Counted from the first letter of the stretch, positions 1 to 15,609 are shown. The stretch: 32,000 nucleotides of DNA from Flavobacteriaceae bacterium (GCA_965224465.1 OZ245049.1:390001-422000); one strand, 5' to 3'. Notes: generated by a model from the letters alone, not told the origin. Numbers and translations are program-made.

Positions 1-266
1 TGTCTTTAAAGCCTTTTAAAGCAGTATCAGTATTTCCGGGTTGCCCACTACTTGTTAAAACTTCCTTATTGTAAATATCTACAACCGTAAATGTTTTTGA
101 TGGTTCTGCGTAAGTTGCTGCTATTGTTTTGTTTCTTACACCGTGCGTTGTAGACTCTCCTGCTTTAACAAAATCATTTGGTGTCATTTTATTTGCAGAA
201 GTCAAATGATTTTGGTCTTTTCCGAAATTTAAAACACTAGGACTATCTAAAAGCATATAAATTATA
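1..266 (-). pseudogene. 5'-truncated fragment of a polymorphic-toxin C-terminal domain (third copy of the CTD of ORF 10713..11951); continues off the left window edge
   Basis: nt 1-266 align without gaps to nt 10982-11247 at roughly 95% identity, and more loosely to about 6686-6940. Homology ends abruptly at 266, where the IS terminal repeat begins. Confidence 0.75.
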
Positions 267-1680
267 GGTTGTGTAATTTAAACTCTGTCTGCTTGTTTTT
301 TTCTACGTTTTAAAATAGTTCGATTTTCTCTTCATAAGGCTGCTTTAAAAATCGAACTATTTTAAAATGAGCCCCAGCGGCTAGCGTCACGAATTGCTTC
401 CGTTTTTATGTAAATCCAACGTTATTCGATCTTCAAATTTAATATATAATTGTTGAATTGTCAAGCACCAATTATGTAAAGGGTTTGTCCATTTTTTTTC
501 GATATTTTTTGTTGCTAAGTAAACAAGCTTTAATAGTGCCATATCACTGGTAAAAGCCCCTTTTGTTTTAGTTACTTTTCTTACCTGTCTATGAAAACCT
601 TCTACTGCATTTGTTGTGTAAATTATTTTTCTGATAGGTTCTGTATACTGAAAAAACTGAGATAACTCTTCCCAATTACGGTTCCAACTTTCTAAAACTA
701 CAGGGTATTTTTCTCCCCATTTTTCTTCTAATTTCAATAACTCCAACTCAGCAATATCCTTATTAACAGCCTTGTAAACAAGCTTTAAATCTCGAATAAA
801 TTCTTTTTGGTCTTTGGAAGCTATATACTTTAAAGAATTACGAATTTGATGAACAATACACTTTTGAATTTGTGTTTTAGGAAATACACTCAAGATAGCT
901 TCTGAAAACCCTTTTAAGTTGTCTGTACAGGCAATTAGGATATCCTTAAGCCCTCTGTTATTAAGGTCTGTCAATACTTGAAGCCAAAAATTTGCGCCTT
1001 CACTTTCTGAAATATACATTCCTAAAACCTCTTTGATCCCTTCTTTATTTACTCCTAAAACATTGTAAAGTGCTTTGTGTTGTATTTTACCGTCTACTTT
1101 TACCTTGTAATGCATAGCGTCAAGCCAAACAATGCAGTACATCTGTTCTATTGGACGACTTTGCCATTGTTTTATATCTGGTATGATCTTATCTGTAATT
1201 TGACTTAAAACAGTGTGTGATATATCTGTATCATACATCTCTTTTATATGACCAGAAATATCGCGTAAGCTCATTCCTAGGCCGTATAATCCAATGATCT
1301 TATCTGATAAATTATCTGCTAAAATGGTTTGACGCTTTTTTATCAGAACAGGCTCGAAACTACTATTTCTATCCGCTGGCGTGCTTATTTCAAAACTACC
1401 AATACTAGTTTTAACAGTCTTTTTGCCCTTTCCATTACGTTTATTCCCTTTAGAACGTTCCTCTTCACTAAGGTGTGATTCCATTTCTGCTTCCAATGCT
1501 TTCTCAAGAAATTGTTTCATTAAAGGAGCAAAGGCACCTTCTTTTCCGAATAAACTTTTTCCTGATAATAATTGATCCAATGCCTTTTTTTCAATGTTGG
1601 CTAACTCGTCTTTTGTCATGTTTTCTGTTTGAATAAAGTTAATACTTTTTTTTATTCAGACAGAGTTGAGTTTACAGTCC
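267..1680 (-). mobile_element. IS256-family insertion sequence (about 1.4 kb)
   Basis: Single transposase ORF. Imperfect terminal inverted repeats: GGTTGTGTAATTTAAACTCTGTCTG at 267 versus the reverse complement GGACTGTAAACTCAACTCTGTCTG ending at 1680. The ends were placed where homology to the flanking paralogous genes stops. Confidence 0.8.
387..1619 (-). CDS. IS256-family (Mutator-type) transposase, 410 aa
   Basis: Length and sequence pattern typical of IS256/Transposase_mut proteins: N-terminal LSGKSLFGKEGAFAPLMKQFLEKALEAEMESHL, central WLDAMHYKV and C-terminal TTNAVEGFHRQVRKVTK. Confidence 0.9.
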   Translation of the reverse strand: MTKDELANIEKKALDQLLSGKSLFGKEGAFAPLMKQFLEKALEAEMESHLSEEERSKGNKRNGKGKKTVKTSIGSFEISTPADRNSSFEPVLIKKRQTILADNLSDKIIGLYGLGMSLRDISGHIKEMYDTDISHTVLSQITDKIIPDIKQWQSRPIEQMYCIVWLDAMHYKVKVDGKIQHKALYNVLGVNKEGIKEVLGMYISESEGANFWLQVLTDLNNRGLKDILIACTDNLKGFSEAILSVFPKTQIQKCIVHQIRNSLKYIASKDQKEFIRDLKLVYKAVNKDIAELELLKLEEKWGEKYPVVLESWNRNWEELSQFFQYTEPIRKIIYTTNAVEGFHRQVRKVTKTKGAFTSDMALLKLVYLATKNIEKKWTNPLHNWCLTIQQLYIKFEDRITLDLHKNGSNS

Positions 1681-2323
1681 CAGTTATCCTTAAAAACTTG
1701 CCATTTACGCCATCTATTCTGTAAACTTTAATGTCTTTAAGGTTATATTTTTCATTTCCATCTAATACAACTTGCCATTCTGGTTTTGCATTTGGGAATT
1801 CGTTTAAATTATTGTGTGTTAAATTAAACCCTGTAACCTGATAATTTTCAATGTCTTTTTTTGCAATTCTCTTTACTATTTCTATAGCTTCAGCCCAACA
1901 TATTTTATAGCCTTTTTCGTAGTCTATTACTTTCGTTATTTTTCCTTGTTCATTGTAATGAGTTTCTTTATTTATTTTAGAATTACCATTTTCATATTTA
2001 AATAAACTCCATCTTATTTTATTGTTTTTATACCTTATCCATTTAGAAATATTTATTTTTTTGTTTATATAGACATTTGTCACATCATTATCACCTAGAT
2101 TCAAATATTCATTTTTATAATTTTCATTATCAAGTAAAATTAAATCACCTTCTTTATTTTTTAGTTGCTTTTGTATGTTCTGATCAAGTACCAACTCCTC
2201 TTTAGAAATTTTAAAAACAGGATAATTATAATGGCAAGTATTATTATTAATTAAATATCCTTTAGGAACAGAGGAACAATTAGTAAAAAAAATACTTAAT
2301 AATAAAATATATAAATATTTCAT
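1652..2323 (-). CDS. putative immunity lipoprotein, paralog c of three; 3' end replaced by IS sequence
   Basis: Lipoprotein signal MKYLYILLLSIFFTNC. The C-terminal half is near-identical to 2396..3064 and 3137..3805. The last 12 or so codons (ITGTVNSTLSE) differ from the paralog tail (TTRIITTHH) because they read into the IS right end. Confidence 0.6.
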   Translation of the reverse strand: MKYLYILLLSIFFTNCSSVPKGYLINNNTCHYNYPVFKISKEELVLDQNIQKQLKNKEGDLILLDNENYKNEYLNLGDNDVTNVYINKKINISKWIRYKNNKIRWSLFKYENGNSKINKETHYNEQGKITKVIDYEKGYKICWAEAIEIVKRIAKKDIENYQVTGFNLTHNNLNEFPNAKPEWQVVLDGNEKYNLKDIKVYRIDGVNGKFLRITGTVNSTLSE

Positions 2324-2395
2324 ATTATTTTAATTTAGAATATTGTTGTAATTTTTCCCACTGCCATTTGTAGGTGCGCCTCGTTAACTACTGGC

Positions 2396-3064
2396 TTAGT
2401 GGTGAGTTGTTATTATTCTAGTTGTCCTTAAAAACTTGCCATTTATGCCATCTATTCTGTAAACTTTAATATCTTTAATGTTATATTTTTCATTTCCATC
2501 TAATACAACTTGCCATTCTGGTTTTGCATTTGGGAATTCGTTTAAATTATTGTGTGTTAAATTAAACCCTGTAACCTGATACTTTTCAATGTCTTTTTTT
2601 GCAATTCTCTTTACTATTTCTATAGCTTCAGCCCAACATATTTTATAGCCTTTTTCGTAGTCTATTACTTTCGTTATTTTTCCTTGTTCATTGTAATCAA
2701 ATTCTTTGAATATATTTATATAACTATTCAAATATTTAAATTCAACCCATTTTATTTTCCCTAGATGGTCATATCTTATATATTTAGCTATGTTTATTTG
2801 TTTATTTGTTTGTTTATTTGTTATGTATTCATCTTTCGAATATCTAAATTCATTTTTAAAATATTTATTATCTGTCGTAACAGTATCTTCTTCCTTTTTT
2901 TTCAATTGATAAAGAATTTCGTTATTAAGTGTTAATTCTTCTTTATTAATTTTAAAAATGGGGTAATTATAATGGCAAGTATTATTATTAATTAAATATC
3001 CTTTAGGAACAGGGGAACAATTAGTAAAACAAATACTTAACAATAAAATATATAAATATTTCAT
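2396..3064 (-). CDS. putative immunity lipoprotein, paralog b
   Basis: Lipobox signal peptide. Lies in the tandem 741-bp unit downstream of the metallopeptidase-type effector. Confidence 0.6.
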   Translation of the reverse strand: MKYLYILLLSICFTNCSPVPKGYLINNNTCHYNYPIFKINKEELTLNNEILYQLKKKEEDTVTTDNKYFKNEFRYSKDEYITNKQTNKQINIAKYIRYDHLGKIKWVEFKYLNSYINIFKEFDYNEQGKITKVIDYEKGYKICWAEAIEIVKRIAKKDIEKYQVTGFNLTHNNLNEFPNAKPEWQVVLDGNEKYNIKDIKVYRIDGINGKFLRTTRIITTHH

Positions 3065-3136
3065 ATTATTTTAATTTAGAATATTGTTGTAATTTTTCCC
3101 ACTGCCATTTGTAGGTGCGCCTCGTTAACTACTGGC

Positions 3137-3805
3137 TTAGTGGTGAGTTGTTATTATTCTAGTTGTCCTTAAAAACTTGCCATTTACGCCATCTATTCTG
3201 TAAACTTTAATATCTTTAAGGTTATATTTTTCATTTCCATCTAATACAACTTGCCATTCTGGTTTTGCATTTGGGAATTCGTTTAAATTATTGTGTGTTA
3301 AATTAAACCCTGTAACCTGATACTTTTCAATGTCTTTTTTAGCAATTCTCTTTACTATTTCTATAGCTTCAGCCCAACATATTTTATAGCCTTTTTCGTA
3401 ATCTATTACTTTCGTTATTTTTCCTTGTTCATTGTAATGGGTTTCTTTGAAGATAGGTTTTGTGCCATTGATGTAAACAAAACTTACTCTTTTAATTGTT
3501 CTGTTTTTTCTATATAAAATCCATTTATCAATGCCTAATTGTTTGCTTGTTTGGTAATTTGCAATACTTCCACTAGATAAAACAGAAAATAGATTTTTAT
3601 AATTCTCATTGTCTGATATGACAATATCCCCGTTTTCGTCTTTTGATTGTTTTAAAATATTTGGATTAAGGACTAATTCTTCTTTAGTTATTTTAAAAAT
3701 AGGTTCGTTGTAATGACATGTATTATCATTTGCTAAATATTCTTTAGGAACAGAGAAACAATTAGTAAAACAAATACTTAACAATAAAATATATAAATAT
3801 TTCAT
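3137..3805 (-). CDS. putative immunity lipoprotein, paralog a (directly coupled to effector 3807..4946)
   Basis: Its start lies 1 nt after the effector stop. Lipobox signal MKYLYILLLSICFTNC. Confidence 0.6.
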   Translation of the reverse strand: MKYLYILLLSICFTNCFSVPKEYLANDNTCHYNEPIFKITKEELVLNPNILKQSKDENGDIVISDNENYKNLFSVLSSGSIANYQTSKQLGIDKWILYRKNRTIKRVSFVYINGTKPIFKETHYNEQGKITKVIDYEKGYKICWAEAIEIVKRIAKKDIEKYQVTGFNLTHNNLNEFPNAKPEWQVVLDGNEKYNLKDIKVYRIDGVNGKFLRTTRIITTHH

Positions 3806-3806
3806 A

Positions 3807-4946
3807 TTATTTTAATTTAGAATATTGTTGTAATTTTTCCCACTGCCATTTGTAGGTGTGTTTTTTATGATTATTATAATCCATATAATTGTCTGTTTTT
3901 GCGTCCTTAAATTTATGTATACTTTGAAAGGCATCCCTTAATCCTAAAGCGTGCATTATTTCGTGAATTATATTTTCTGATTTAATGTTTCCTTCAGGGT
4001 CTAATACCAAATAGGCGATTCCAGTACCTGCAGGAGATATACCTCCTGCAGCCTTAAAAGATCCCTCTTCTGGAATGTCTTTTTCATTGATACATTTTTG
4101 ATTGATAAAATAAATAGTTAATTTGTTTGTATCTTTATTGTGTTTATTATTAATATAAGATAAAATGGTGCTTATTTTACTCCTTTCAATATAGTTTCCA
4201 ATTCTATTGTCAATATTTTTTTTTAGAAAACCATGTTTTTTAAAATTTTCTAAATGTTCACTAATATCGACCATCGTTGGATTATTATTAGTGATATTGA
4301 TATCAATTAAAGCAGGATTTAAACCTTTTTTAAGGTCTTTTTCTAAATCTAATTTGTTGATTTCTTTACCTAAAGCGAATTCATCTTTTTCATCTCCTTG
4401 AATTTCGACAAAACACCATTCAAGGTCAATAGTTTTGGGTTTAGGGTAAAAGATATTAATTGCTCCAACAATTAATTCATCATCCGCTTTTATTAAGATT
4501 TGAGCAGAAGTTACATTGTTGTTTTTACAGGTTATTTTTACTTTTTTAGCATCTTTTAAGTTCTTTGGTTCAAAAGTAAAATCGGCATGAGGTTCAAAAC
4601 TTATAGTTTCATAGTCATCTGCTTTTCCTTTTTTCGTCCAATCAAGTTCCAATTCGACTGTTTGGTCTTTTCTTAAACTTAACCAAGAAGGAATGTATTG
4701 CTCTCCTCGTATTTTTTCTGAGAGCGGCTTGTATTCTTTTTTAAGTTTTTCGTAGTCCGATACAACAATTTTTTCTTTAGGGATCCTATCAAAACCGAAA
4801 ACGCCCCTCATAATATCTTTATTTCTTGCTATAAATTCGATTTTAAAAGGTTTTTTAGTAGCAATTGGCTGTAAATATCTAGTTAATGTTTCTCCGTCTT
4901 CAAATGTTATTCTAAAACCTGTTTTTTTCATTTTTTGAGTTCCCAT
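3807..4946 (-). CDS. T6SS-associated effector with a C-terminal metzincin/M43-like zinc metallopeptidase domain (379 aa)
   Basis: HEIMHALGLRD (HExxHxxGxxD) at about nt 3941-3970, followed by DNYMDY, which resembles the N[FY]MDY Met-turn block of the M43 pappalysin/cytophagalysin family. TAATG stop-start overlap with the upstream hcp copy. Confidence 0.6.
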   Translation of the reverse strand: MGTQKMKKTGFRITFEDGETLTRYLQPIATKKPFKIEFIARNKDIMRGVFGFDRIPKEKIVVSDYEKLKKEYKPLSEKIRGEQYIPSWLSLRKDQTVELELDWTKKGKADDYETISFEPHADFTFEPKNLKDAKKVKITCKNNNVTSAQILIKADDELIVGAINIFYPKPKTIDLEWCFVEIQGDEKDEFALGKEINKLDLEKDLKKGLNPALIDINITNNNPTMVDISEHLENFKKHGFLKKNIDNRIGNYIERSKISTILSYINNKHNKDTNKLTIYFINQKCINEKDIPEEGSFKAAGGISPAGTGIAYLVLDPEGNIKSENIIHEIMHALGLRDAFQSIHKFKDAKTDNYMDYNNHKKHTYKWQWEKLQQYSKLK

Positions 4947-5584
4947 TACTTTTTCACTTTTTGTTTAATCACTTTTAACTCAATCTGTTCTAAATCGTTA
5001 CTTATTTCGATATTACTAAGGGTATCATTAGGTAGCAAATTACCATTGTACTCAAAATCATACTTAGCATCATCTAAATTAATTGTTATAAAACCTCCTC
5101 TACGGTTTTTCGTTTCTATATTTAATAGTATAATATCATTATCTTTATAATCTTGAATTTCTTCATTATCGGAATTCGTTAAATAATACCTTATTATTTC
5201 TTTCTCATCATCTCTCTCTAACACCGTTGGTTCAACTTCTATAAAAGGATCTTCAAACACCCAATTTTCTATTTTTTTAACATCTTTTATTTTAACAGCA
5301 CCACACGTTATCGTTAAATTAATGTGTAAGGGCAAATTGTCTTGATTGTCAAATTCTTCTGTAAGACCTACAATATAGGCTTTATGGAATTCTACTTTGT
5401 ACAAGGTTTTAAACTCATCTCTGTCATAAAATATTAATTCACCGCTAAAACTAGCATTTGGTGAAAACATATAGTGATACAAATCGCTATCAAACCCAGT
5501 AGATTCAAACATTAAATGGAATGGGCTTTTACGCGTTGTGGTCGTAGGGTTTCCCGTAATATCTTTTAGTTTGTATAATACCAA
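4946..5584 (-). CDS. tssD: 5'-truncated TssD/Hcp copy with C-terminal extension type B (212-aa ORF; only a junction-created TTG start)
   Basis: nt 5221-5578 are more than 99% identical to the intact hcp (12224-12581). It lacks the first 22 codons, and its C-terminal 70 or so aa differ from the other two copies. Confidence 0.7.
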   Translation of the reverse strand: MVLYKLKDITGNPTTTTRKSPFHLMFESTGFDSDLYHYMFSPNASFSGELIFYDRDEFKTLYKVEFHKAYIVGLTEEFDNQDNLPLHINLTITCGAVKIKDVKKIENWVFEDPFIEVEPTVLERDDEKEIIRYYLTNSDNEEIQDYKDNDIILLNIETKNRRGGFITINLDDAKYDFEYNGNLLPNDTLSNIEISNDLEQIELKVIKQKVKK

Positions 5585-5811
5585 TTACAATCCAAAATAA
5601 CCGATATAAATAGTTTATTTTACGTTCTAGCGTTGTTAAAAAACAGAACGATAGCTATCCTTAGATTTTACGCCTAGCTAGAACAAAAAATTAATTTCAT
5701 TTCTAAACCGTCACTTGAAAATGTATTTGGTATTAATACAGCTACCAACAGCAATCTGTAGATAAAATATTTACTTCAAGTTAACACAGAATCTTAGATA
5801 TTAACTGGACT
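5579..5811. repeat. R element copy 1 (long form)
   Basis: About 98% identical to 9852..10084. The core AATTACAATCCAAAATAAC...GTTGTTAAAAAACAGAACGAT is shared with 13326..13403 and 17769..17929. Confidence 0.85.
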
Positions 5812-6417
5812 TTATTCATACTTAGTTTTTCGTAAATCTTTATACTTACAGTTTTTTGTTCTGTAACACTCAATAACATCACTATTTATATTTTTATATA
5901 AAATTTCTAATAAGCCTTCTTTTAGTTCGAAAAAATTCCAATTTGCTGGAATATCAATATAATTTGCTTCTTTGTCATTTTTCATTGCGAAAATTAGAAC
6001 ACGTATTCCTAAATAACCTTTTGTTCGATTTCCTTGAGCGTTCTCTAAAAACGGCTTAATGGACAAGCTGTCATTTGTACACTTTATATTGTGTACGTAA
6101 AAAATACATTTTTTTTTATAGGTATAACTTGTTGTCTTTACTAATAATTCCTTTTCGTTTAAATTAAAAATGTAGCTTATAAAATTAGAACTACTATTAG
6201 TTAACTCATCGGAATATTTAGTACCTGTATGTTTTACATCTTTTAATAATTTTAATACGCTTTTAAAATCAATTTTGGTTTGTAATCCTTTTTTTTTTAT
6301 ACGTGTACTATCAGAAACAACAATTTTAATTATTGGAATTTCTTTATTTGTTTTAATAGTTTTTTTAAAACAAACTAAAAATGGTATAATAAATAATATT
6401 ATAAAATAGTTTTTCAT
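5812..6417 (-). CDS. putative immunity lipoprotein for the orphan Cys/His toxin CTD (homolog of 10085..10711)
   Basis: Signal peptide. Shares a conserved C-terminal block with 10085..10711: IKPFLENA.G..T.GY...RVLIFAMKNDKEAN.IDIP...LLEILYKNI.SDVIEC.RTK.CKYKDLRKTK.E. Confidence 0.55.
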   Translation of the reverse strand: MKNYFIILFIIPFLVCFKKTIKTNKEIPIIKIVVSDSTRIKKKGLQTKIDFKSVLKLLKDVKHTGTKYSDELTNSSSNFISYIFNLNEKELLVKTTSYTYKKKCIFYVHNIKCTNDSLSIKPFLENAQGNRTKGYLGIRVLIFAMKNDKEANYIDIPANWNFFELKEGLLEILYKNINSDVIECYRTKNCKYKDLRKTKYE

Positions 6418-6419
6418 AA

Positions 6420-7178
6420 TTATTTCTTTTTATTTCTAAGTTGATAGATTTCTAATTTCATAGGGTATTTATCTCTCCAAGCGTAAACTGTTCCTAAAAA
6501 ATAATTTTCAAGCTGCTTACATGTTCTTGGTATTACACCAACTATTTGGTCAATAAATTGAAATTCAAAAGTGTCATCTTTTTTATTTACAATAACTGTA
6601 AAAGAATGGTAATCATCGTTATAAGCACCAATAAAAACATAATTGCCATTATCTGGACACTTGCTTTTCATATAATCAATTGGACTGTCTTTAAAGCCTT
6701 TTAAAGCAGTATCAGTATTTCCGGGTTGCCCACTACTTGTTAAAACTTCCTTATTGTAAATATCTACTACAGTAAATGTTTTTGATGGTTCTGCGTAAGT
6801 AGCTGCTATTGTTTTGTTTCTTACACCGTTAGTTGTAGATTCTCCTGCTTTTTCATAGTCTTTTGGAGTGTCTCTACCTACTATTTGGTCTTTTCCTAAA
6901 ATTAAACTTGAAGGATTGTCTAAAAGTTTATAAATTATGTGTTTATGTGTATCCGTACAATGATGATAATCAGAGTATTTATTAGCATTTCGCTGTTTAT
7001 TATAATTTGCTATTGCATACACATTAATTTCTTCAATTTTCTCTTTACTAAACTCCCATTCGTTAAGGGTTTCGTAAACTATTTTCATACACCCACAAAA
7101 CAAGTTTTCATAATCCCCAGTTGAATACCCCTCTTCATTATCATTAGCTAAAAAACGAATATAGAATGCTACACTTTA
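6420..7178 (-). pseudogene. orphan toxin module: Cys/His CTD paralog plus a 75-nt remnant of the conserved effector N-terminal domain (ORF-track ORF 6420..7103)
   Basis: nt 7104-7178 match 11405-11480, which encodes ...SVAFYIRFLANDNEEGYSTGDYENLFCGC. Homology stops 14 nt after the stop of the upstream immunity gene. There is no N-terminal domain or native start. Confidence 0.7.
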
Positions 7179-7192
7179 TTCATGCTAAAACC

Positions 7193-8023
7193 CTAAATTC
7201 TTTTTAGAACATATTTTAAAGAATCTTTTTTTTCGAGAAATAGATTGTTGTTTTTGATATAGAAGTACCATTCTTCTTCGTTTAACCTGATTAAATACTT
7301 TTTGTTACTTTCACTTTTTGGATTAGCTAATGTGCTATAGTTGGTATTCGAGTACGTTTTAAAAATATCAGAACCAATGATTTTTTTTTCTAGGATGTCA
7401 AAATAAATTTTAGATTCTAGTAAATTGTTACAGGAGTCATATAGATCAAAAGTTTTTTTGAAAAAATAAACATCTCTTTGCAATCGATAATAAAAAAGAT
7501 CATTAAATATAAAACTCTTTAAATTAGAACAATAATGGATACTATCTTTACTTGTAATAATACTAAATTGATTTTTCCTCTTTACTAAAAAAATAGAATC
7601 TTTATTCTGGTAATGATGAGTATTAAATTTGGTTAGATAATAAGTACTGTCATTAATCGCAACTACTCGTAATTTTCTATAATCAAATTTTGAACTATTA
7701 GCATAAATCTTTTTTTGTTTCCAATTACTAATATGAATAAATTCGTATGGATAACTTTCGTTATTTCTAATTGAAGTATCATCAAATCCTTTTAAATTTA
7801 AATTATAAACAAAGTCGACAGGCATCCAAAAGGAATTGTCTATTGATTTTTTATTATAAACAAAATCGGAGGAGTCCAAACTCATAAAACGGGTGGTTTT
7901 AAGAGTGTCTTGTTTTGTTTTTGTGTTTAATTCTTTTTTAAATTGTTGGTCTTTAGATTTTTTTTTTGAATTACAAAAAACTAAAGAAAAGCAAAGTAAA
8001 ATGATAAAAAATATTTTTTTCAT
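7193..8023 (-). CDS. putative immunity lipoprotein for the Tae4-like effector (276 aa)
   Basis: Lipoprotein signal MKKIFFIILLCFSLVFC. Starts 6 nt downstream of the effector stop. Confidence 0.5.
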   Translation of the reverse strand: MKKIFFIILLCFSLVFCNSKKKSKDQQFKKELNTKTKQDTLKTTRFMSLDSSDFVYNKKSIDNSFWMPVDFVYNLNLKGFDDTSIRNNESYPYEFIHISNWKQKKIYANSSKFDYRKLRVVAINDSTYYLTKFNTHHYQNKDSIFLVKRKNQFSIITSKDSIHYCSNLKSFIFNDLFYYRLQRDVYFFKKTFDLYDSCNNLLESKIYFDILEKKIIGSDIFKTYSNTNYSTLANPKSESNKKYLIRLNEEEWYFYIKNNNLFLEKKDSLKYVLKRI

Positions 8024-8029
8024 ATCTAT

Positions 8030-9223
8030 TTATTTCAATTCCCAATACCATATTTCATCAGCTCCATAGTAACCCGATCCTGTCTGACCGTGGTAAATAA
8101 CATCTATGTGACTAACACCTCCATCACTTTTATCCCATAAAAAAACAATCCCATTGGCAGAATTTGGATTGAATTCACTAGTGTTTTTAAATTTTTCAGG
8201 TATAAAAACATTATTATGTAACCAATCAGCTAAACCTTTGGAGGATCTGGCAAATCCATCTCTTGTTTTGTTTATACTAGGGTAAGAAAACAAATTAAAA
8301 TTAGAATTAGTTAATCCATAAGAAAGACGAATAGCACATTGATTATAATACTTATCATGATCAATAGTTACATCTTGTCTGTGAGCCCCAACTTTATCGG
8401 TAGGGTATTTATGTATTAATTCACCTAAACTTGGAAGTCCTCCTTTATTTTTAAAACTCCAATTAAACTTGTTTTTTTCTTCTTTTAATCTTTCTTTTTC
8501 TAATTTTAAACTAAAAAACTTTTTATTTTCAAGGGATTTATACTCACCGTCTGATACAAGTATTGTTCTGTTCTTTTCAAATTCAGAATTTACTTCTCCT
8601 AAAAACTCTCCATCTGAATTACTATAAAAATATATTTTTGATTTTATAACAATAGTCTCAACCTTAAAACACCCACAAAACAAGTTATCATAATCCCCAG
8701 TTGAATACCCCTCTTCATTATCATTAGCTAAAAAACGAATATAGAATGCTACACTTTCTTCTGTTGTAATATCAACTTCCACTTCTATTTCAGAACCAAA
8801 TTTAGCTAAAATATTATCACTAAACGTTGTTTCAGATTTTTGCTTAATTTTTGCTGTAACCCCTTTAACTTCTACAAATTTGTCTTTTTCCTGAGATATT
8901 TCTATTTCTATATACCCATCGTCGTCTTCCCATTGTTCATCAGGACCTCCTTTTTTAATTAGAAAAGGTATTACTGGTTTTTGTAGTGCGGTTAGTAATG
9001 TAGTTATAGTTTCGTTTTTTTTACTGTCGTTAGTTTGGGTTAAGAGGTCTACAAAAACATGTTTATCGTTTTCATCCTTTTCTAAAGGGAGTTTATCTTT
9101 TTCAATATTGTATCCTGTCGTATCTCTTAATTCTACTAGAGGTATAAATTCTGTCCATTCTAAGCCTTCTCCTGTGTATGAATTACTAGGGTTTCCTGTT
9201 TCACTTACTGTTATGGTTCCCAT
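8030..9223 (-). CDS. T6SS-associated effector: conserved N-terminal domain plus a Tae4-like peptidoglycan amidase CTD (397 aa)
   Basis: YYNQCAIRLSYGLTN and GIVFLWDKSDGGVSHIDVIY resemble the catalytic Cys and His blocks of Tae4 (NACPIRMSYVLN ... GHVTLW). The N-terminal 190 aa are near-identical to 10713..11951. Confidence 0.65.
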   Translation of the reverse strand: MGTITVSETGNPSNSYTGEGLEWTEFIPLVELRDTTGYNIEKDKLPLEKDENDKHVFVDLLTQTNDSKKNETITTLLTALQKPVIPFLIKKGGPDEQWEDDDGYIEIEISQEKDKFVEVKGVTAKIKQKSETTFSDNILAKFGSEIEVEVDITTEESVAFYIRFLANDNEEGYSTGDYDNLFCGCFKVETIVIKSKIYFYSNSDGEFLGEVNSEFEKNRTILVSDGEYKSLENKKFFSLKLEKERLKEEKNKFNWSFKNKGGLPSLGELIHKYPTDKVGAHRQDVTIDHDKYYNQCAIRLSYGLTNSNFNLFSYPSINKTRDGFARSSKGLADWLHNNVFIPEKFKNTSEFNPNSANGIVFLWDKSDGGVSHIDVIYHGQTGSGYYGADEIWYWELK

Positions 9224-9224
9224 A

Positions 9225-9857
9225 CTAACTATTTTGTTTTTTAGAGTTTAATTCTATTTTCATAGTATCTGAAGTTATATTAAAACCATTTATTTTATTG
9301 TCTTCAAGTAATTGTCCTTGGTGTTCCAGTGGTGCATTAATTGAACTTAAATCTATATCTGTTTGTTTACCTGTCATATCTTGTGTTTTTAGGATTAAAA
9401 ACACTTTTACACCTTTTTGTATCTTAGACACTCTTTCTCCTTGACTGTCTTGGAAATAGGTTTCTAAGACAGCTCCTTCTCCACTATTTTCTAACACCGT
9501 TGGTTCAACTTCTATAAAAGGATCCTCAAACACCCAATTTTCTATTTTTTTAACATCTTTTATTTTAACAGCTCCACACGTTATCGCTAAATTAATGTGT
9601 AAGGGCAAATTGTCTTGATTGTCAAATTCTTCTGTAAGACCTACAATATAGGCTTTATGGAATTCTACTTTGTACAAGGTTTTAAACTCATCTCTGTCAT
9701 AAAATATTAATTCACCGCTAAAACTAGCATTTGGTGAAAACATATAGTGATACAAATCGCTATCAAACCCAGTAGATTCAAACATTAAATGGAATGGGCT
9801 TTTACGCGTTGTGGTCGTAGGGTTTCCCGTAATATCTTTTAGTTTGTATAATACCAA
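9225..9857 (-). CDS. tssD: 5'-truncated TssD/Hcp copy with C-terminal extension type A (210-aa ORF, TTG start only)
   Basis: Near-identical to codons 23-231 of 11953..12648. The junction with the R element is at the same nucleotide as in 4946..5584. Confidence 0.7.
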   Translation of the reverse strand: MVLYKLKDITGNPTTTTRKSPFHLMFESTGFDSDLYHYMFSPNASFSGELIFYDRDEFKTLYKVEFHKAYIVGLTEEFDNQDNLPLHINLAITCGAVKIKDVKKIENWVFEDPFIEVEPTVLENSGEGAVLETYFQDSQGERVSKIQKGVKVFLILKTQDMTGKQTDIDLSSINAPLEHQGQLLEDNKINGFNITSDTMKIELNSKKQNS

Positions 9858-10084
9858 TTACAATCCAAAATAACCGATATAAATAGTTTATTTTACGTTC
9901 TAGCGTTGTTAAAAAACAGAACGATAGCTATCCTTAGATTTTACGCCTAGCTAGAACAAAAAATTAATTTCATTTCTAAACCGTCACTTGAAAATGTATT
10001 TGGTATTAATACAGCTACCAACAGCAATCTGCAGATAAAATATTTACTTCAAGTTAACACAGAATCTTAGACATTAACTGGACT
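9852..10084. repeat. R element copy 2 (long form)
   Basis: See copy 1. It fills the whole immunity-to-hcp intergenic space. Confidence 0.85.
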
Positions 10085-10711
10085 TTATTCAGACTTAGTT
10101 TTTCGTAAATCTTTATACTTACATTTTTTTGTTCTGTTACACTCAATAACATCACTATCAATATTTTTATATAGGATTTCTAATAATTCTTTTCTTAATT
10201 TAAGAGGATTCATTTTTTCTGGTATATCAATAAAATTTGCTTCTTTATCGTTTTTCATAGCGAAAATTAGAACACGATTTTGTGTATAACCTCGTGTAGT
10301 TTTCCCAAAGGCGTTTTCTAAAAAAGGCTTTATGCTTATGTCGTTTTTAATGTGTTTTAAATTATGTACATAAAATTTTAAGTTATTTTTGTATTCATAA
10401 CTGATTGTTTTTATTACAAACTTTCGATTATTAAGTAGAAAAACAGAATCTAAAGTACGTGCTCTATCAAACATCCAATCCTTATTTTTTTTTCCAACAT
10501 TTTTAACATTTTTAATATTAGATAATAAGTTATTAAAATTTATTGCAGTTTGTAGGTGTTTTTTCTTTATAACTTTTATAGAGTCTAAAGTTAAATTATT
10601 AAAAGAAGTATTAGAATTACTCTTATCAAATATAATTTTATTATTTGGTTTGGTTCCTTTACAACTAGACGTCAGTAATAGGATAAATAATACTAAAAAA
10701 TAACTTTTCAT
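10085..10711 (-). CDS. putative immunity lipoprotein for effector 10713..11951 (208 aa)
   Basis: Lipobox LLLTSSC. The start is 1 nt after the effector stop (TAA A ATG). Confidence 0.55.
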   Translation of the reverse strand: MKSYFLVLFILLLTSSCKGTKPNNKIIFDKSNSNTSFNNLTLDSIKVIKKKHLQTAINFNNLLSNIKNVKNVGKKNKDWMFDRARTLDSVFLLNNRKFVIKTISYEYKNNLKFYVHNLKHIKNDISIKPFLENAFGKTTRGYTQNRVLIFAMKNDKEANFIDIPEKMNPLKLRKELLEILYKNIDSDVIECNRTKKCKYKDLRKTKSE

Positions 10712-10712
10712 T

Positions 10713-11951
10713 TTACTTCGTTTTATTTCTTAATTGATACAGTTCTAATTTCATAGGGAAATTAGAAGCGTAATCATCTATATTAATTAAAAATTTTAAA
10801 TTTTCTAATTTTTCACCTGTATAATATTGAACACCTACCATTTGGTCAATAAATTGAAATTCAAAAGTGTCATCTTTTTTATTTACAATAACTGTAAAAG
10901 AATGGAAATCATCGTCATAAGCGCCAATAAAAACATAATTGCCATTATCTGGACACTTGCTTTTCATATAATCAATTGGACTGTTTTTAAAGCCTTTTAA
11001 AGCAGTATCAGTATTTCCGGGTTGCCCACTACTTGTTAAAACTTCCTTATTGTAAATATCTACAACAGTAAATGTTTTTGATGGTTCTGCGTAAGTTGCT
11101 GCTATTGTTTTGTTTCTTACACCGTTAGTTGTAGATTCTCCTGCTTTAACAAAATCATTTGGTGTCATTCTATTCGCAGAAGGCAAATGATTTTGGTCTT
11201 TTCCAAAATTTAAAACACTAGGACTATCTAAAAGCATATAAATTATATGCTTGTGCGTATCTGTACAATGATGATATCTATTTGCATCTCCGCCTCCGCT
11301 GTATTTTGCACAATTAGCTCTTGCGTACACTTTAATTTCTTCAATTTTCTCTTTACTAAACTCCCATTCGTTAGGGGTTTCGTAAACTATTTTCATACAC
11401 CCACAAAACAAGTTTTCATAATCCCCTGTTGAATACCCCTCTTCATTATCATTAGCTAAAAAACGAATATAGAATGCTACACTTTCTTCTGTTGTAATAT
11501 CCACTTCCACTTCTATTTCAGAACCAAATTTAGCTAAAATCTTATCACTAAACGTTGTTTCAGATTTTTGCTTAATTTTTGCTGTAACCCCTTTAACTTC
11601 TACAAATTTGTCTTTTTCCTGAGATATTTCTATTTCTATATACCCATCGTCGTCTTCCCATTGTTCATCAGGACCTCCTTTTTTAATTAGAAAAGGAATT
11701 ACTGGTTTTTGTAGTGCGGTTACTAATGTAGTTATAGTTTCGTTTTTTTTACTGTCGTTAGTTTGGGTTAAGAGGTCTACAAAAACATGTTTATCGTTTT
11801 CATCCTTTTCTAAAGGGAGTTTATCTTTTTCAATATTGTATCCTGTCGTATCTCTTAATTCTACTAGAGGTATAAATTCTGTCCATTCTAAGCCTTCTCC
11901 TGTGTATGAATTACTAGGGTTTCCTGTTTCACTTACTGTTATGGTTCCCAT
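10713..11951 (-). CDS. T6SS-associated effector: conserved N-terminal domain plus an unclassified Cys/His CTD (412 aa)
   Basis: Starts 1 nt after the hcp stop (TAG T ATG). Shares its N-terminal domain with 8030..9223 up to the LFCGC junction. The CTD has the conserved blocks YHHCTDTHKHIIY, DD[FY]HSFTVIV and FIDQ. Confidence 0.65.
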   Translation of the reverse strand: MGTITVSETGNPSNSYTGEGLEWTEFIPLVELRDTTGYNIEKDKLPLEKDENDKHVFVDLLTQTNDSKKNETITTLVTALQKPVIPFLIKKGGPDEQWEDDDGYIEIEISQEKDKFVEVKGVTAKIKQKSETTFSDKILAKFGSEIEVEVDITTEESVAFYIRFLANDNEEGYSTGDYENLFCGCMKIVYETPNEWEFSKEKIEEIKVYARANCAKYSGGGDANRYHHCTDTHKHIIYMLLDSPSVLNFGKDQNHLPSANRMTPNDFVKAGESTTNGVRNKTIAATYAEPSKTFTVVDIYNKEVLTSSGQPGNTDTALKGFKNSPIDYMKSKCPDNGNYVFIGAYDDDFHSFTVIVNKKDDTFEFQFIDQMVGVQYYTGEKLENLKFLINIDDYASNFPMKLELYQLRNKTK

Positions 11952-11952
11952 A

Positions 11953-12648
11953 CTAACTATTTTGTTTTTTAGAGTTTAATTCTATTTTCATAGTATCTGA
12001 AGTTATATTAAAACCATTTATTTTATTGTCTTCAAGTAATTGTCCTTGGTGTTCCAGTGGTGCATTAATTGAACTTAAATCTATATCTGTTTGTTTACCT
12101 GTCATATCTTGTGTTTTTAGGATTAAAAACACTTTTACACCTTTTTGTATCTTAGACACTCTTTCTCCTTGACTGTCTTGGAAATAGGTTTCTAAGACAG
12201 CTCCTTCTCCACTATTTTCTAACACCGTTGGTTCAACTTCTATAAAAGGATCCTCAAACACCCAATTTTCTATTTTTTTAACATCTTTTATTTTAACAGC
12301 TCCACACGTTATCGCTAAATTAATGTGTAAGGGTAAATTGTCTTGATTGTCAAATTCTTCTGTAAGACCTACAATATAGGCTTTATGGAATTCTACTTTG
12401 TACAAGGTTTTAAACTCATCTCTGTCATAAAATATTAATTCACCGCTAAAACTAGCATTTGGTGAAAACATATAGTGATACAAATCGCTATCAAACCCAG
12501 TAGATTCAAACATTAAATGGAATGGGCTTTTACGCGTTGTGGTCGTAGGGTTTCCCGTAATATCTTTTAGTTTGTATAAGGTGTATTCTGCTCTTAATAA
12601 CGTTCTTTCTTTTCCATCTATAATGGCGATGCCTTTAAAACTACTCAT
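11953..12648 (-). CDS. tssD: intact type VI secretion tube protein TssD/Hcp (Bacteroidota type) with an approximately 90-aa C-terminal extension (231 aa)
   Basis: Matches the Bacteroidota TssD pattern: F..GKE...L...Y.L......G.P......FESTG...L..YMF......G.IF.D......K.EF..AYIV...E.F......PL.I.L.I....VKI......NW. It is the only copy with an ATG and the first beta-strand region. Confidence 0.8.
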   Translation of the reverse strand: MSSFKGIAIIDGKERTLLRAEYTLYKLKDITGNPTTTTRKSPFHLMFESTGFDSDLYHYMFSPNASFSGELIFYDRDEFKTLYKVEFHKAYIVGLTEEFDNQDNLPLHINLAITCGAVKIKDVKKIENWVFEDPFIEVEPTVLENSGEGAVLETYFQDSQGERVSKIQKGVKVFLILKTQDMTGKQTDIDLSSINAPLEHQGQLLEDNKINGFNITSDTMKIELNSKKQNS

Positions 12649-13310: not shown

Positions 13311-13325
13311 AAAGGAGGTTTACGT

Positions 13326-13403
13326 ACAATACCAATTACAATCCAAAATAACATATATAAATAGGTTGTTTTGCGTGCTGTCGTTGTTAAAAAACAGAAC
13401 GAT
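13326..13403. repeat. R element copy 3 (core only)
   Basis: AATACCAATTACAATCCAAAATAACATATATAAATAGGTTGTTTTGCGTGCTGTCGTTGTTAAAAAACAGAACGAT. Closest to copy 4. Confidence 0.8.
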
Positions 13404-13779: not shown

Positions 13780-15609
13780 TTATTCATTCAATTCATCTTC
13801 AGTTACAATTCTAATATTCCCCGCGAATTTAGCAATAATATTCTTTTTAGTTACAGCTTCAGGAAATGCCATTGCTAACACTTTTTTAGGTCTAGACATT
13901 GCTACATAAATTAATCTTTTCTTCTCACTAGGAAAGGTATTGTCAGAATTACAAATGTCTTCAAAAAGTATATTGCTAGCGTGTTTTCTATCGTTAAAGA
14001 AAATTAATACTGAATCTAAAGTTTTACCTTTCACTTGGTGAATAGTAGTAATTGGAATGTTAGATTCCGAATACGATTTTTTAAAATGAATGTTAACAGA
14101 TTCATTTAGTGTTATATCTTTATTGAAAAATTTAGATTTTCTATTTCTTAGATTAAAATTCACGTCATAATGTAAGCCCAATTTTTCTTTCATAAAAATT
14201 TGAGTTTGATTTGTCCAATCTGCAACTGTTAATTCAAAACTTGGTAGCTCAATTAGAATCTGAAATAAAAGTGAATTAAAAAGATGGTCTTCTTTTGAAT
14301 TTCTTTCAATTTCCTTTAACTGATGATAGTCACTTTCTGGATTTAATAACTTTATAGAAATAGTACGTATTTCGTTTATGGAATTTTTGATATCATTACC
14401 CTTAAAACGATTTTTTGCCGTAATAATTTCTTTTGGCAACTCAATACCCCAAGGTCTTTCTTCTGTTGTTTTTCCTAATAATTTATTCTTTAATGAGTTT
14501 CCTCTAACTACAATATTGTTCTTTTCAAAATTGTTGGTCGAGCAAAGTTCTTCATAGTGTTTAATAATTGATTGAAGATTGTTCTCAGAATATTTATAAA
14601 TAATAATTGAATTGTCTTTTGTAGGATTGCCAACAGAACTTATTTTTGCGTCATTAGCTTTTCTTAGTATAGAAAAAATGTCAATAATATTTTGAGGTGA
14701 CCGCCTGTTGTCTGTTAGGTCAAATGAATTCCAACTATCGTCTTCATTATACTTTTTTAAAAATTCATTTGGATTTGCATCTCTCCATTGATAGAGGCTT
14801 TGATAAGGGTCGCCAATTAATTCTATGTTTTTTAATCCTTGCTTAGACAATTCTTCAAAGATTGCGTGTTGAATTAAAGAATTATCTTGAGCCTCATCAA
14901 TTATGATAAAAGGAAACCTTAAAGATAACCATTGACAAATTTTCGGTTTTTTCCTTAAAATATGGAGAGCTATATATGCAGAATCTCCTGTTGAGATTAA
15001 GCCTTTAGTAAATTGTGTATTCTTAATTAATTTGCAATAATTTTTAAACTTATCTAGTTCAACTTTATCTGGTGATGGTTGATTACCTTTCACAGAATAA
15101 CTTCCATCTTGTTCAATTCTAATTTCGCTAGGTGGATATAAATGATAGATACTTCTATTATTTTTTGCTTTATATGCATCAAAGTTTAAAGGTCTTTTTA
15201 AACCTTCTTTTGTTTTTCCATTTTTGTCAATGTAATTGATTTTCCACATTTCATCTAGAATATTTGTGTGGTCAAGGATTTTAGGTCTTTTAAACTTTCT
15301 ATCTAATATATTATAAAAAGGAAGTGTAATAAATTTATTTATAAAACTATCAATAGTGGAAACGTGATTAGGAAAGCTTAAAATTTTCCCGCTCAGTTTT
15401 GAATAAGATTCGTTTATTTCATCCTTTGCTGAGTTCGTAAAAGAAAGACAAGCAATACCTGAATATGAATTGACCTCTTTTAATTGCTGTAATTCTATTA
15501 TTTTTTGTGCAATTGTAGTTGTTTTACCGCTTCCAGGACAGGCGTTTAATATGATTTTACCTCTTGCTTGAAGATATGCCGTTCTTTCTTCATTTAAGTC
15601 ATAAATCAT
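13780..15609 (-). CDS. gajB: UvrD/PcrA/Rep-like SF1 helicase, GajB-like (609 aa)
   Basis: Helicase motifs CPGSGKTTT (I), IIIDEAQDNS (II), GDPYQSLYQWRDA (III), NRRSP (IV), TIHQVKGKTLDSV (V) and YVAMSRPKKVL (VI). ATGA start-stop overlap with the upstream OLD-family gene. Confidence 0.8.
   Translation of the reverse strand: MIYDLNEERTAYLQARGKIILNACPGSGKTTTIAQKIIELQQLKEVNSYSGIACLSFTNSAKDEINESYSKLSGKILSFPNHVSTIDSFINKFITLPFYNILDRKFKRPKILDHTNILDEMWKINYIDKNGKTKEGLKRPLNFDAYKAKNNRSIYHLYPPSEIRIEQDGSYSVKGNQPSPDKVELDKFKNYCKLIKNTQFTKGLISTGDSAYIALHILRKKPKICQWLSLRFPFIIIDEAQDNSLIQHAIFEELSKQGLKNIELIGDPYQSLYQWRDANPNEFLKKYNEDDSWNSFDLTDNRRSPQNIIDIFSILRKANDAKISSVGNPTKDNSIIIYKYSENNLQSIIKHYEELCSTNNFEKNNIVVRGNSLKNKLLGKTTEERPWGIELPKEIITAKNRFKGNDIKNSINEIRTISIKLLNPESDYHQLKEIERNSKEDHLFNSLLFQILIELPSFELTVADWTNQTQIFMKEKLGLHYDVNFNLRNRKSKFFNKDITLNESVNIHFKKSYSESNIPITTIHQVKGKTLDSVLIFFNDRKHASNILFEDICNSDNTFPSEKKRLIYVAMSRPKKVLAMAFPEAVTKKNIIAKFAGNIRIVTEDELNE

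Follow-up and report, generated by a model that had tools for sequence, protein, structure and literature searches.

Three tandem copies of a candidate immunity gene stand behind an effector gene in the window, the 32,000-nucleotide stretch of Flavobacteriaceae DNA analysed here, and combine nearly identical ends with strongly different centres. The question is how such a mosaic has arisen and which role it might serve. We give a probability of roughly 0.6 to the reading that the locus is a polyimmunity array, in which old central alleles lie between ends homogenised by recombination, behind a T6SS Hcp-linked, adamalysin-like zinc-metalloprotease effector.

Organisation of the array and its effector

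The array lies on the minus strand and consists of three head-to-tail units of 741 bp with first bases at 3858, 3117 and 2376. The motif CACCTACAAATGGCAGTGGG is found at these same minus-strand positions, and the direct-repeat spacing is 741/741 nt (738 in one register); TRF was silent on the array, as it covers periods up to 500 only. The repeat unit is composed of the last 52 nt of the metalloprotease effector gene, a lipoprotein ORF of 222 aa and a 19-nt spacer. The 52-nt effector tail, including the stop codon, is identical in all three units and is followed by a single T and then by the ATG of the lipoprotein ORF. Unit 1 starts with the native 3' end of the effector gene (3807..3858, encoding ...TYKWQWEKLQQYSKLK*), continues with the paralogue U1 (3137..3805, 222 aa; defined by ORF, AF2 model and family alignment; variable block, aa 45-121, at 3443-3673) and closes with the spacer GCCAGTAGTTAACGAGGCG (3118..3136), which runs from the U1 stop codon to the second effector-tail copy and has the duplication junction at its 3' edge. 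Unit 2 contains a tail copy identical to the native one (3066..3117), the paralogue U2 (2396..3064, 222 aa; variable block at 2702-2932) and the second spacer copy (2377..2395). Unit 3 contains the third tail copy (2325..2376) and the paralogue U3 (1652..2323, 223 aa; variable block at 1964-2191), and all of these features are on the minus strand. The repeat spacing and the identical tails confirm the original prediction of a 741-bp tandem triplication carrying 52 nt of the effector in every unit, except that unit 3 is cut at 1682.

U3 is native only down to base 1682, and from base 1681 downwards unit 3 is replaced by an IS256/Mutator-family element (267..1681, minus strand), with its transposase at 387-1619 (Pfam Transposase_mut, E=5e-98) and terminal inverted repeats at 272-291 and 1657-1676. 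The end of this element supplies the stop codon of U3 and the 10 codons before it, and the protein ends in ...FLRITGTVNSTLSE instead of ...FLRTTRIITTHH. A third unit is therefore present with an intact ORF but not with its own 3' end. All three ORFs are intact and each keeps all 20 family-invariant residues. The element joins the truncated U3 to a toxin-domain fragment of another effector (window 1-266), and the flanking sequences contain no target-site duplication, so the downstream end of the array was deleted or rearranged. Window 1-273 aligns with 10982-11255 at 96%, and other recombination products and IS elements are abundant at the locus.

Since flanks of 98-100% identity are difficult to assemble, the tandem copies might be suspected to be a mis-assembled repeat. 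We regard this as scarcely credible, as every unit is anchored by a unique 270-nt centre, comparable arrays are present in more than five other genomes, and the junctions between U2, U3 and the IS are reproduced in an independent ENA metagenome contig (L022). This contig is 99.3% identical to window 1-2823 and has one more unit-to-unit junction; the 99.3% identity to the window is that of its right-hand part (2612-5433), in which the remainder of the array lies.

The gene upstream of the array, on the same strand, encodes a protein of 379 aa (effector C, 3807..4946; ORF, AF2 model and Foldseek) in which a beta-sandwich region at the N-terminus precedes an adamalysin-like metzincin domain at the C-terminus. 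Its zinc motif HEIMHALGLRD (HExxHxxGxxD) is encoded at 3933-3965 and is followed downstream by a Met-turn-like YMDY; residues H328, E329, H332, M355 and D356 are invariant in 44 effector homologues. No Pfam model matches the protein. Its AF2 model (pLDDT 91) was matched by Foldseek to snake-venom metalloproteinases and ADAM catalytic domains, mostly at probability 0.96-1.00, and the adamalysin/ADAM entries 9clp, 1r55, 1htd and 4dd8 were matched at a probability of about 1.0 with target TM-scores of 0.28-0.51 (0.36-0.51 for the catalytic-domain entries of about 200 residues). Entries for Bacteroides fragilis metalloproteinase-II/fragilysin matched at probability 0.47-0.90, with 4on1 at 0.84-0.90. 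In 26 of the 57 effector homologues listed, TssD/Hcp (PF17642) is fused in the same polypeptide, and the effector family profile matches solved Hcp structures (E=1.5e-18). The assignment of this gene as an effector is supported by the zinc motif, the YMDY sequence, the adamalysin/ADAM/fragilysin fold match and the Hcp-fused homologues.

The window effector itself is free-standing and located 3' of an Hcp gene, in place of the fusion seen in many homologues. This Hcp/TssD gene, Hcp' (4946..5584, minus strand; Pfam TssD, E=1.9e-21, profile positions 27-128 only), is truncated at its 5' end and overlaps the effector start. Its homology to the full-length Hcp gene at 11953-12648 begins at codon 24, codons 1-23 being missing, and self-BLAST aligns 5217-5578 with 12218-12579 at 98.9%. 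A T6SS core cluster was not found within the window. The third zinc ligand is Asp in the window effector, whereas it is His in 18/18 homologues at other loci. With this Asp and an Hcp partner devoid of codons 1-23, the effector may be inactive or unexpressed here.

A lipoprotein homologue is located directly downstream of an effector homologue in 20 of 21 genome loci of marine Flavobacteriaceae (Mariniflexile, Tenacibaculum, Pseudotamlana, Flavivirga, Lacinutrix, Aquimarina and Sinomicrobium). This gene order, together with the analogy to other toxin loci, suggests that the effector-linked lipoproteins are immunity proteins. U1 carries a lipoprotein signal with the invariant Cys16, and the lipoproteins would probably sit in the periplasm and inhibit the protease. 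In the AF2 model of U1 (pLDDT 86), residues 60-135 form a beta-hairpin sheet and residues 144-217 a C-terminal alpha/beta domain. Seven antiparallel strands are modelled at residues 61-135, for which the top fold matches, although weak, are to the single-layer sheet of OspA, and the variable block forms an exposed beta-sheet. The immunity lipoprotein has no Pfam family. PepSY (PF03413) matches 4 of 34 family members at a best E of 0.0032, below the curated threshold and with no match to the window protein, and the weak fold matches to YpeB (5boi), the vibriolysin propeptide (3nqz) and 4exr all have TM-scores of at most 0.34. MORN_2/YwqK-type repeats (PF07661) match 6 of 34 members, again below the curated threshold (best E=0.064). 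When an HMM profile was run against 1.84 billion representative proteins, only 96 relatives were found. The effector-lipoprotein pair, an adamalysin-like metzincin with a Pfam-less candidate immunity lipoprotein, is an uncharacterised one.

Conserved ends and divergent centres

Divergence between the three units is concentrated in the centre and is not evenly spread. Sliding-window nucleotide identity is 95-100% in unit columns 1-120, falls to 40-67% in columns 180-390 and returns to 92-100% in columns 420-690; taken together, identity amounts to 95-100% over roughly 110-170 nt at the 5' side and roughly 270 nt at the 3' side, and to 57-62% in the centre between these two blocks. At the protein level, pairs share 15-16 of 16 residues at positions 1-16, 21-25 of 28 at 17-44, 33-35 of 77 at 45-121 and 86-90 of 91 at 122-212. 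A two-breakpoint max-chi-square scan placed 38-44% differing sites in the central segment as compared to 2.3-4.6% outside, with a clustering chi-square of about 160 that was reached in 0/200 permutations. The 5' breakpoint of the mosaic is not the same in different pairs. The non-uniform divergence anticipated from the sequence is therefore borne out, as is the extensive difference expected for residues 47-120 or so. The boundaries need some correction: near-identity had been extended to about residue 45 but holds for residues 1-16 only, residues 17-44 being intermediate (pS 0.25-0.42), and the near-identity proposed for the last 105 or so residues stands for residues 122-212 but not for the end of U3, where IS sequence has taken over.

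The original prediction had offered two origins for this mosaic, namely focused diversification of a binding surface or homogenisation of the flanks by gene conversion. Nei-Gojobori estimates between U1, U2 and U3 give a dS of 0.02-0.06 in aa 123-211 and 0.9-1.9 in aa 45-121, placing the centre and the 3' block about 20-90-fold apart in synonymous divergence. Synonymous sites of the centre are saturated (pS 0.52-0.69), and its dN/dS of 0.26-0.53 stays below 1, the ratio being imprecise since the central dS is saturated. Saturated dS together with a dN/dS below 1 indicates that the centres are old alleles and not products of recent focused mutation. Between genomes, the core and C-terminal block reach a saturated pS of 0.5-0.8 at a pN of only 0.04-0.19, as compared to a pS of 0-0.13 within the array; amino-acid constraint can therefore not account for the nucleotide identity of the array flanks. 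Judged from these substitution patterns, the flanks appear to share recent ancestry via gene conversion or unequal crossing-over, and the second of the two proposed origins is the one that gains support, both from the synonymous contrast and from the saturation of the same 3' block between genomes.

A recent triplication of one gene followed by positive selection on the binding surface, aa 45-121, would explain why divergence is sharply limited to the block that forms the exposed sheet in the model. We consider it very improbable in view of the saturated centre with its low dN/dS. The substitution spectrum of the centre is moreover unbiased, with all types of change (ts/tv 0.77-1.0), and 47 central classes exist across the family. 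A U1-type centre is also present in another genus: between U1 and its Mariniflexile ostreae relative the centre is the best-conserved part, with 84% nucleotide identity, pN 0.09 and pS 0.43, whereas identity to the M. ostreae centre drops to 59-60% for the centres of U2 and U3. In protein comparisons, P0002, P0003, P0005 and P0006 have centres with 82-100% identity to that of U1. Targeting by a diversity-generating retroelement (DGR) was also considered and rejected, as the substitutions have no adenine-specific pattern and no template repeat, that is, no second copy of any central block, occurs within the window. An RT-like ORF was likewise not found among the window ORF lists, of which part of the ORFs were Pfam-scanned.

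Modules and copy number across the family

Under the preferred reading of old alleles between homogenised ends, the Hcp-linked effector would have its lipoprotein immunity gene in three paralogous tandem copies, whose central blocks would be anciently diverged allele classes. Both the 5' stretch (effector tail, start region and signal peptide) and the 3' 270 nt (conserved core and C-terminal alpha/beta domain) would have been homogenised recently within the array by homologous recombination, through gene conversion or unequal crossing-over. The repeat unit itself is probably old; tail remnants at about the same junction are seen in other genera, ahead of secondary copies in L002, L008, L009, L014 and L023. 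Each copy may keep the effector tail because it provides the native translation-initiation context.

Copy number varies from 1 to 8 between genome loci, with arrays of 2-8 copies in L002, L006, L008, L009, L014, L015, L016 and L023; frameshifted and IS-disrupted copies as well as orphan effector C-terminal fragments are present. The mosaic of conserved flanks and divergent centre is also found in L002, L008, L009, L015 and L016. A second paralogue set in the source genome (P0029, P0040, P0110 and P0041), compared at the protein level, has N-terminal parts 95-100% and C-terminal parts 94-100% identical, with centres 42-61% identical between different variants; the centres of P0040 and P0110 are identical.

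The array could alternatively have grown, or had its content exchanged, by taking up central blocks horizontally as foreign cassettes of other strains, through homologous recombination in its conserved end blocks, with little internal gene conversion between old resident paralogues and unchanged immunity function. We hold this to be possible but doubtful as the main explanation. Central classes are common to several genera while flanks are genome-specific, and P0006, encoded elsewhere in the source genome, combines a centre identical to that of U1 with a different C module. The metagenome contig L022, in which the same flanks enclose a fourth central allele, carries different central alleles in its first two array positions between flanks of about 98% identity; however, the identity switch in this contig coincides with an IS and the contig may be a chimeric assembly. 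Near-identical flanks within one array and a pair-specific 5' breakpoint are in contrast the expected product of intra-array conversion tracts. Cassette capture and intra-array gene conversion are compatible with each other, and present data do not distinguish between the two.

Family-wide, a conserved core (aa 122-165) separates the variable central module from a variable C-terminal module. Among 69 non-redundant members, 47 central and 22 C classes can be told apart, and these are found in reassorted combinations, central 1 and central 6 each occurring with both C1 and C2. Within L002, L008, L016 and the source genome, the similarities of the central modules do not agree with those of the C modules. 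Both modules have reassorted around the core. A tentative extension is a combinatorial cassette system, in which the core and the tail/signal-peptide block act as crossover sites and central beta-hairpin and PepSY-like C modules are shuffled within and between arrays, producing new immunity specificities against polymorphic Hcp-borne metzincins faster than point mutation. If so, each of the three window copies would have a functional specificity of its own, built on the chassis that they share.

An immunity repertoire against allelic effectors is plausible, and several central variants may widen protection against the variant effectors of competitors. It might be argued instead that the copies are redundant, the centre being a loosely constrained scaffold and any specificity residing in the PepSY-like C-terminal domain that is identical in the three copies, with the array serving dosage or being a by-product of a recombination-prone locus that is rich in other recombination products and IS elements. 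When the immunity modules were checked for covariation with the effector, the central block tracked effector divergence least, its identity correlating with toxin-domain identity at a Spearman coefficient of 0.24-0.26 as compared to 0.47-0.58 for the C module, and near-identical Tenacibaculum effectors adjoin different central classes. We nevertheless find redundancy unlikely, since purifying selection clearly acts on the central block when members of one allele class are compared between genera (the pN and pS given above for M. ostreae), the three intact ORFs retain the family-invariant residues, and several genera have arrays that combine distinct central classes. The 47 central and 22 C-terminal classes on a conserved chassis offer a natural experiment that could show which part of the inhibitor sets specificity for the protease toxin.

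Relation to known immunity arrays

Orphan immunity genes are also known from Vibrio cholerae, and effector 3'-end remnants accompany immunity genes in orphan immunity arrays. The flank-homogenised tandem pattern is likewise already known from other bacterial toxin-immunity loci. The closest description is that of the T7SS-associated strings of esaG in Staphylococcus aureus and tipC in Streptococcus, tandem paralogues that evolve by homologous recombination (Garrett et al. 2022, PMC9484751). As in the window, several non-identical immunity paralogues follow a polymorphic toxin gene in a string, with high-identity 5' and 3' blocks around variable sequence; recombination in these blocks yields chimeras and copy-number change, and the variable part of tipC forms a beta-sheet face thought to bind the toxin (PMC9484751). 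The window array differs in being T6SS-iii/Hcp-linked and from Bacteroidota rather than Firmicutes, in having a metzincin toxin rather than a nuclease or lipid II phosphatase, and in its unrelated immunity family. Unlike in esaG/tipC, its repeat unit includes the last 52 nt of the effector and two variable modules reassort around a conserved core. If our inference holds, the locus is a Bacteroidota T6SS counterpart of the recombining Gram-positive T7SS immunity strings. For genome scanning, near-identical flanks with a divergent centre in tandem paralogues would then point to concerted evolution around old alleles and not to rapid local diversification.

Polyimmunity loci have been described as tandem, often strongly diverged immunity paralogues beside toxin cassettes, with a proposed role in protection against non-self toxin variants (Zhang et al. 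2012, PMC3482391). That concept mainly concerns the SUKH and SuFu superfamilies, whereas the window family is a Pfam-less lipoprotein with a beta-hairpin and a PepSY-like domain, and the flank-homogenised mosaic is absent from the description (PMC3482391). AID/rAID clusters of Bacteroidales are orphan immunity arrays with a proposed defence against T6SS effectors of neighbours (bioRxiv 10.1101/471110; PMC12247911). The window array resembles them in keeping extra immunity genes without a full effector. It differs in that its copies are paralogues of one family behind their own effector, instead of mixed unrelated immunity genes, and in that no tyrosine recombinase or mobile AID element was seen beside the array, where the IS256-family transposase gene is the sole flanking recombination gene. 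A reading as an rAID cluster was rejected on these grounds.

Arrays of orphan toxin-immunity cassettes are also known from Rhs/CDI systems (Poole et al. 2011, PMC3150448). Similar displaced cassettes make up the wider locus (window 1-12648), with 5' ends cut inside a conserved delivery gene (here at Hcp codon 24) and an immunity gene after each. The recombination handle here is Hcp with the effector N-domain, in place of Rhs or CdiA, and the array itself, unlike the Rhs/CDI cassettes, is a duplication of the immunity gene alone.

Tandem paralogues behind a metzincin effector

Directly behind a metzincin effector gene of an Hcp-linked family, three head-to-tail units occupy window positions 1652-3858 on the minus strand, in agreement with the 741-nt tandem triplication that had been claimed from the sequence. 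The first bases of the units are 3858, 3117 and 2376 (minus strand). As predicted, every unit carries the last 52 nt of the effector gene; these copies are identical in all three units, stop codon included, and a single base separates this stop codon from the ATG of the following putative immunity ORF. The three ORFs, U1 (3137-3805), U2 (2396-3064) and U3 (1652-2323), are all located on the minus strand and encode proteins of 222-223 aa. Units 1 and 2 are full and are closed by a 19-nt spacer, while the third, originally counted as equal to the others, is interrupted at base 1682 by an insertion sequence (IS) of the IS256/Mutator family (~267-1681, minus strand; transposase E=5e-98), from which U3 takes its final 10 codons and its stop codon. 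On the far side of the IS lies a toxin-domain fragment of a different effector, and no target-site duplication was found around the element. Therefore, the array no longer has its original downstream end, and the joining of two unrelated truncated genes by an IS without target-site duplication suggests an IS-mediated deletion. The same IS junctions are present in L022, a metagenome contig. An assembly artefact was ruled out by the unique centre of each unit together with this independent contig.

The effector preceding the array (effector C, 3807-4946, minus strand, 379 aa) has no Pfam match, and searches of Pfam and NCBIfam gave nothing usable for either the effector or the immunity protein. 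The effector contains the motif HEIMHALGLRD with YMDY downstream, and residues H328, E329, H332, M355 and D356 are invariant among 44 effector homologues. In its AlphaFold model (pLDDT 91) an N-terminal beta-sandwich part is followed by ~190 C-terminal residues whose structural matches are snake-venom metalloproteinases, the catalytic domains of ADAM proteins and B. fragilis metalloproteinase-II/fragilysin. An N-terminal TssD/Hcp domain is present in 26 of the 57 listed effector homologues, these proteins being 490-545 aa in length, and the family profile matches solved Hcp structures of Bacteroidales and Flavobacterium. The window encodes the Hcp part in an ORF of its own (Hcp', 4946-5584), which lacks codons 1-23. 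The third zinc-ligand position of effector C, residue 338 (3933-3935, minus strand), is Asp, whereas it is His in 18/18 homologues of other loci and in at least 90% of the 44 aligned proteins. Asp338 may serve as a zinc ligand in the manner of snapalysin, or the change may be attenuating. With its Hcp part truncated as well, the Hcp'-effector C cassette may be an attenuated or silent orphan, with the immunity genes retained for defence.

Old centres between young flanks

Sliding-window comparison, as had been proposed, revealed that divergence is concentrated in the centre of the units. Nucleotide identity in 60-nt windows is 95-100% over the first ~120 nt of the unit columns, falls to 40-67% at columns 180-390 and returns to 92-100% from column ~420 to the end. 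A two-breakpoint max-chi-square scan placed differing sites at 38-44% in the centre against 2-5% outside, and this clustering was matched by 0/200 permutations. At the protein level, pairwise identities are 15-16/16 for residues 1-16, 21-25/28 for residues 17-44, 33-35/77 for residues 45-121 and 86-90/91 for residues 122-212. The near-identity expected of the N-terminal flank up to about residue 45 is hence seen for residues 1-16, while residues 17-44 are intermediate. The 5' breakpoint varies by pair, similarity between U2 and U3 extending ~60 nt beyond that with U1, and the 3' breakpoint falls together with the start of a family-wide conserved core (aa 122-165). This pattern fits conversion tracts that would resolve where homology begins.

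Two explanations had been offered for the mosaic, namely focused diversification of the centre and homogenisation of the flanks by gene conversion. Had the copies arisen by a recent triplication and then come under selection in the centre, its synonymous sites would have been spared, but Nei-Gojobori estimates among the three copies gave dS of 0.9-1.9 for aa 45-121 (dN/dS 0.26-0.53), meaning that the synonymous sites of the centre are saturated; recent positive diversification was therefore rejected. The corresponding dS values are 0.31-0.62 for aa 1-44 (dN/dS 0.16-0.23) and 0.02-0.06 for aa 123-211, where dN/dS of 0.07-0.89 is unstable because only 1-4 differences of each kind are present. 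The core and C-terminal block differs between genomes with pS of 0.5-0.8 and pN of only 0.04-0.19, whereas inside the array its pS is 0-0.13. The nucleotide identity of the flanks thus reflects recent shared ancestry rather than constraint, and of the two original explanations flank homogenisation is supported. In the comparison of U1 with a Mariniflexile ostreae gene, the centre is the best-conserved part (84% nucleotide identity, pS 0.43, pN 0.09), while the same M. ostreae centre shares 59-60% identity with those of U2 and U3. The central blocks are therefore old allele classes which are themselves under purifying selection. Mutagenesis of the DGR type was ruled out, as substitutions in the centre show no bias in spectrum and the window has no template copy.

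The suggested survey of related loci found that copy number varies in other genomes, with pseudogenised copies included, and that centres and C-terminal (C) modules have been reassorted across the family. In L002, a Tenacibaculum sp. locus, one pair of copies is 92-96% identical in the N-terminal, central and core modules with C modules at 65%, while two other copies have C modules at 91% and centres at 60%. Both incongruent types of pair are present in L008. Centres of 53% identity accompany C modules of 98% in L009, and centres of 63% accompany C modules of 100% in L015. Classification of the 69 non-redundant members gave 47 central and 22 C-terminal classes; central classes 1, 4 and 6 are each found with C1 and with C2, class 3 is combined with C7, C8 and C9, and class 2 with C1 and C19. 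The centre of P0006, a family member encoded elsewhere in the source genome, is identical to that of U1 while its C module differs. Four further paralogues of the source genome (P0029, P0040, P0110 and P0041) form another set of like architecture at the protein level, their flanks being identical and their centres variable, and P0041 resembles a P0029/P0040 chimera inside the central block. Outside the window, the 5.24-Mb source contig contains at least five more immunity-family members, these proteins included, and an effector-like fragment (P0094).

Remnants of the effector tail precede secondary copies at about the same junction in five other loci (L002, L008, L009, L014 and L023), so the tail-plus-immunity unit is old or recurrent and not a recent accident of the source genome. 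In the L008 array (positions 7146-14041 of L008; uncultured Flavobacteriaceae, CANLCJ010000027.1), two near-complete orphan C-terminal effector fragments (residues 261-379) and a short remnant (261-299) lie scattered among eight immunity copies; here the duplicated unit sometimes takes in the C-terminal toxin-domain part, zinc motif included, beyond the 52-nt tail. Contig L022 is 99.3% identical to window 1-2823 and contains a fourth central allele, together with a divergent version of the 5' part of U2, between flanks of ~98% identity. An IS lies where the identity switches, so the contig may be a chimeric assembly. Its copy of U2 holds an extra DDE_5/DDE_Tnp_1 IS.

Putative immunity function and related systems

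A homologue of the repeated lipoprotein directly follows the effector homologue in 20 of 21 loci of species-representative genomes, covering Mariniflexile, Tenacibaculum, Pseudotamlana, Flavivirga, Lacinutrix, Aquimarina and Sinomicrobium; a scan of metagenomes contributed just 4 further loci. On the basis of this conserved gene order, the lipoprotein is considered the putative cognate immunity protein. The family is small: a word-indexed search gave 52 clusters, a search of 1.84 billion proteins gave 96 representatives at E<=1e-3, and a profile search found no relatives among PDB sequences. The product has a hydrophobic leader and an invariant Cys16, which are read as a lipoprotein signal, and further invariant cysteines at positions 30 and 143. 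In its model (pLDDT 86), residues 61-135 fold into an antiparallel hairpin sheet of seven strands, and residues 144-217 into a domain of helix plus sheet. Weak matches were obtained to MORN_2 (6/34 members, best E=0.064) and PepSY (4/34 members, best E=0.003), and structural matches with OspA, YpeB, the vibriolysin propeptide and PepSY-like lipoproteins reach TM-scores of at most 0.34. PepSY domains are protease-inhibitory propeptide modules, which for the immunity protein is no more than an analogy.

It seems plausible that the immunity proteins are periplasm-facing lipoproteins inhibiting the protease, and that distinct central (and C-terminal) modules would confer distinct specificities, in which case the array would broaden protection against effector alleles of competitors. 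The retained 52-nt tail could provide each copy with its native AT-rich initiation context; initiation based on Shine-Dalgarno sequences is largely absent in Bacteroidota. Covariation of the toxin domain or middle region of the effector with the immunity modules, over 16-19 pairs of effector and first immunity protein, gave the lowest correlation with toxin-domain divergence for the central block, and different central classes adjoin near-identical Tenacibaculum effectors.

The closest described system is that of the T7SS esaG/tipC genes, which form strings of non-identical immunity paralogues where recombination in conserved 5' and 3' blocks yields chimeras and changes in copy number, the variable region of tipC being a sheet thought to bind the toxin (Garrett et al. 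2022, PMC9484751). Such arrays have been named polyimmunity loci (Zhang et al. 2012, PMC3482391). The orphan immunity arrays AID/rAID of Bacteroidales are related in purpose but are recombinase-associated and heterogeneous. Our literature search found nothing on this immunity family, nor on arrays of this kind in Flavobacteriaceae. New here are the protein families and the T6SS/Bacteroidota setting, whereas the evolutionary mechanism is already known and was expected. The array represents a clean, replicated example and a tractable system for studies of specificity.

The surrounding Hcp-effector-immunity cassettes

Window 1-12648 (minus strand) is an array of Hcp-effector-immunity cassettes, organised much like the orphan arrays of Rhs/CDI systems, with Hcp in the role of recombination handle. 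The first cassette comprises a full Hcp gene (11953-12648), effector A (10713-11951) and the immunity gene of effector A (10085-10711), all on the minus strand. The Hcp genes of the two later cassettes (9225-9857 and 4946-5584) begin at codon 24. Effector B (8030-9223, minus strand) carries a Tae4 amidase domain (PF14113, E=2e-6) and has its first 188 residues in common with effector A at 97% identity. A headless copy of the effector A toxin domain (ORF 6420-7103 within region 6420-7181, minus strand) is followed by a second copy of the effector A immunity gene (5812-6417). Large internal duplications relate 8669-9851 to 11397-12579 (99.4%) and 5217-7181 to 9490-11489 (84%).

An element of ~80 nt (5573-5652 and 9846-9925, minus strand), holding the short inverted repeat CGTTCT...AGAACG, marks the precise 5' edge of each truncated Hcp copy. 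Rfam contains no match to this element, and a search of 26 retrieved loci did not find it; Rfam and tRNA scans of the window as a whole were likewise negative. A third copy (13324-13403, minus strand, 89% identical) precedes the full-length Hcp gene by ~700 nt. The Hcp-effector array is itself immediately preceded by a Gabija anti-phage pair, complete and on the minus strand at 13780-17537, with GajA at 15606-17537 (PADLOC E=2.7e-285) and GajB at 13780-15609 (E=1e-103).
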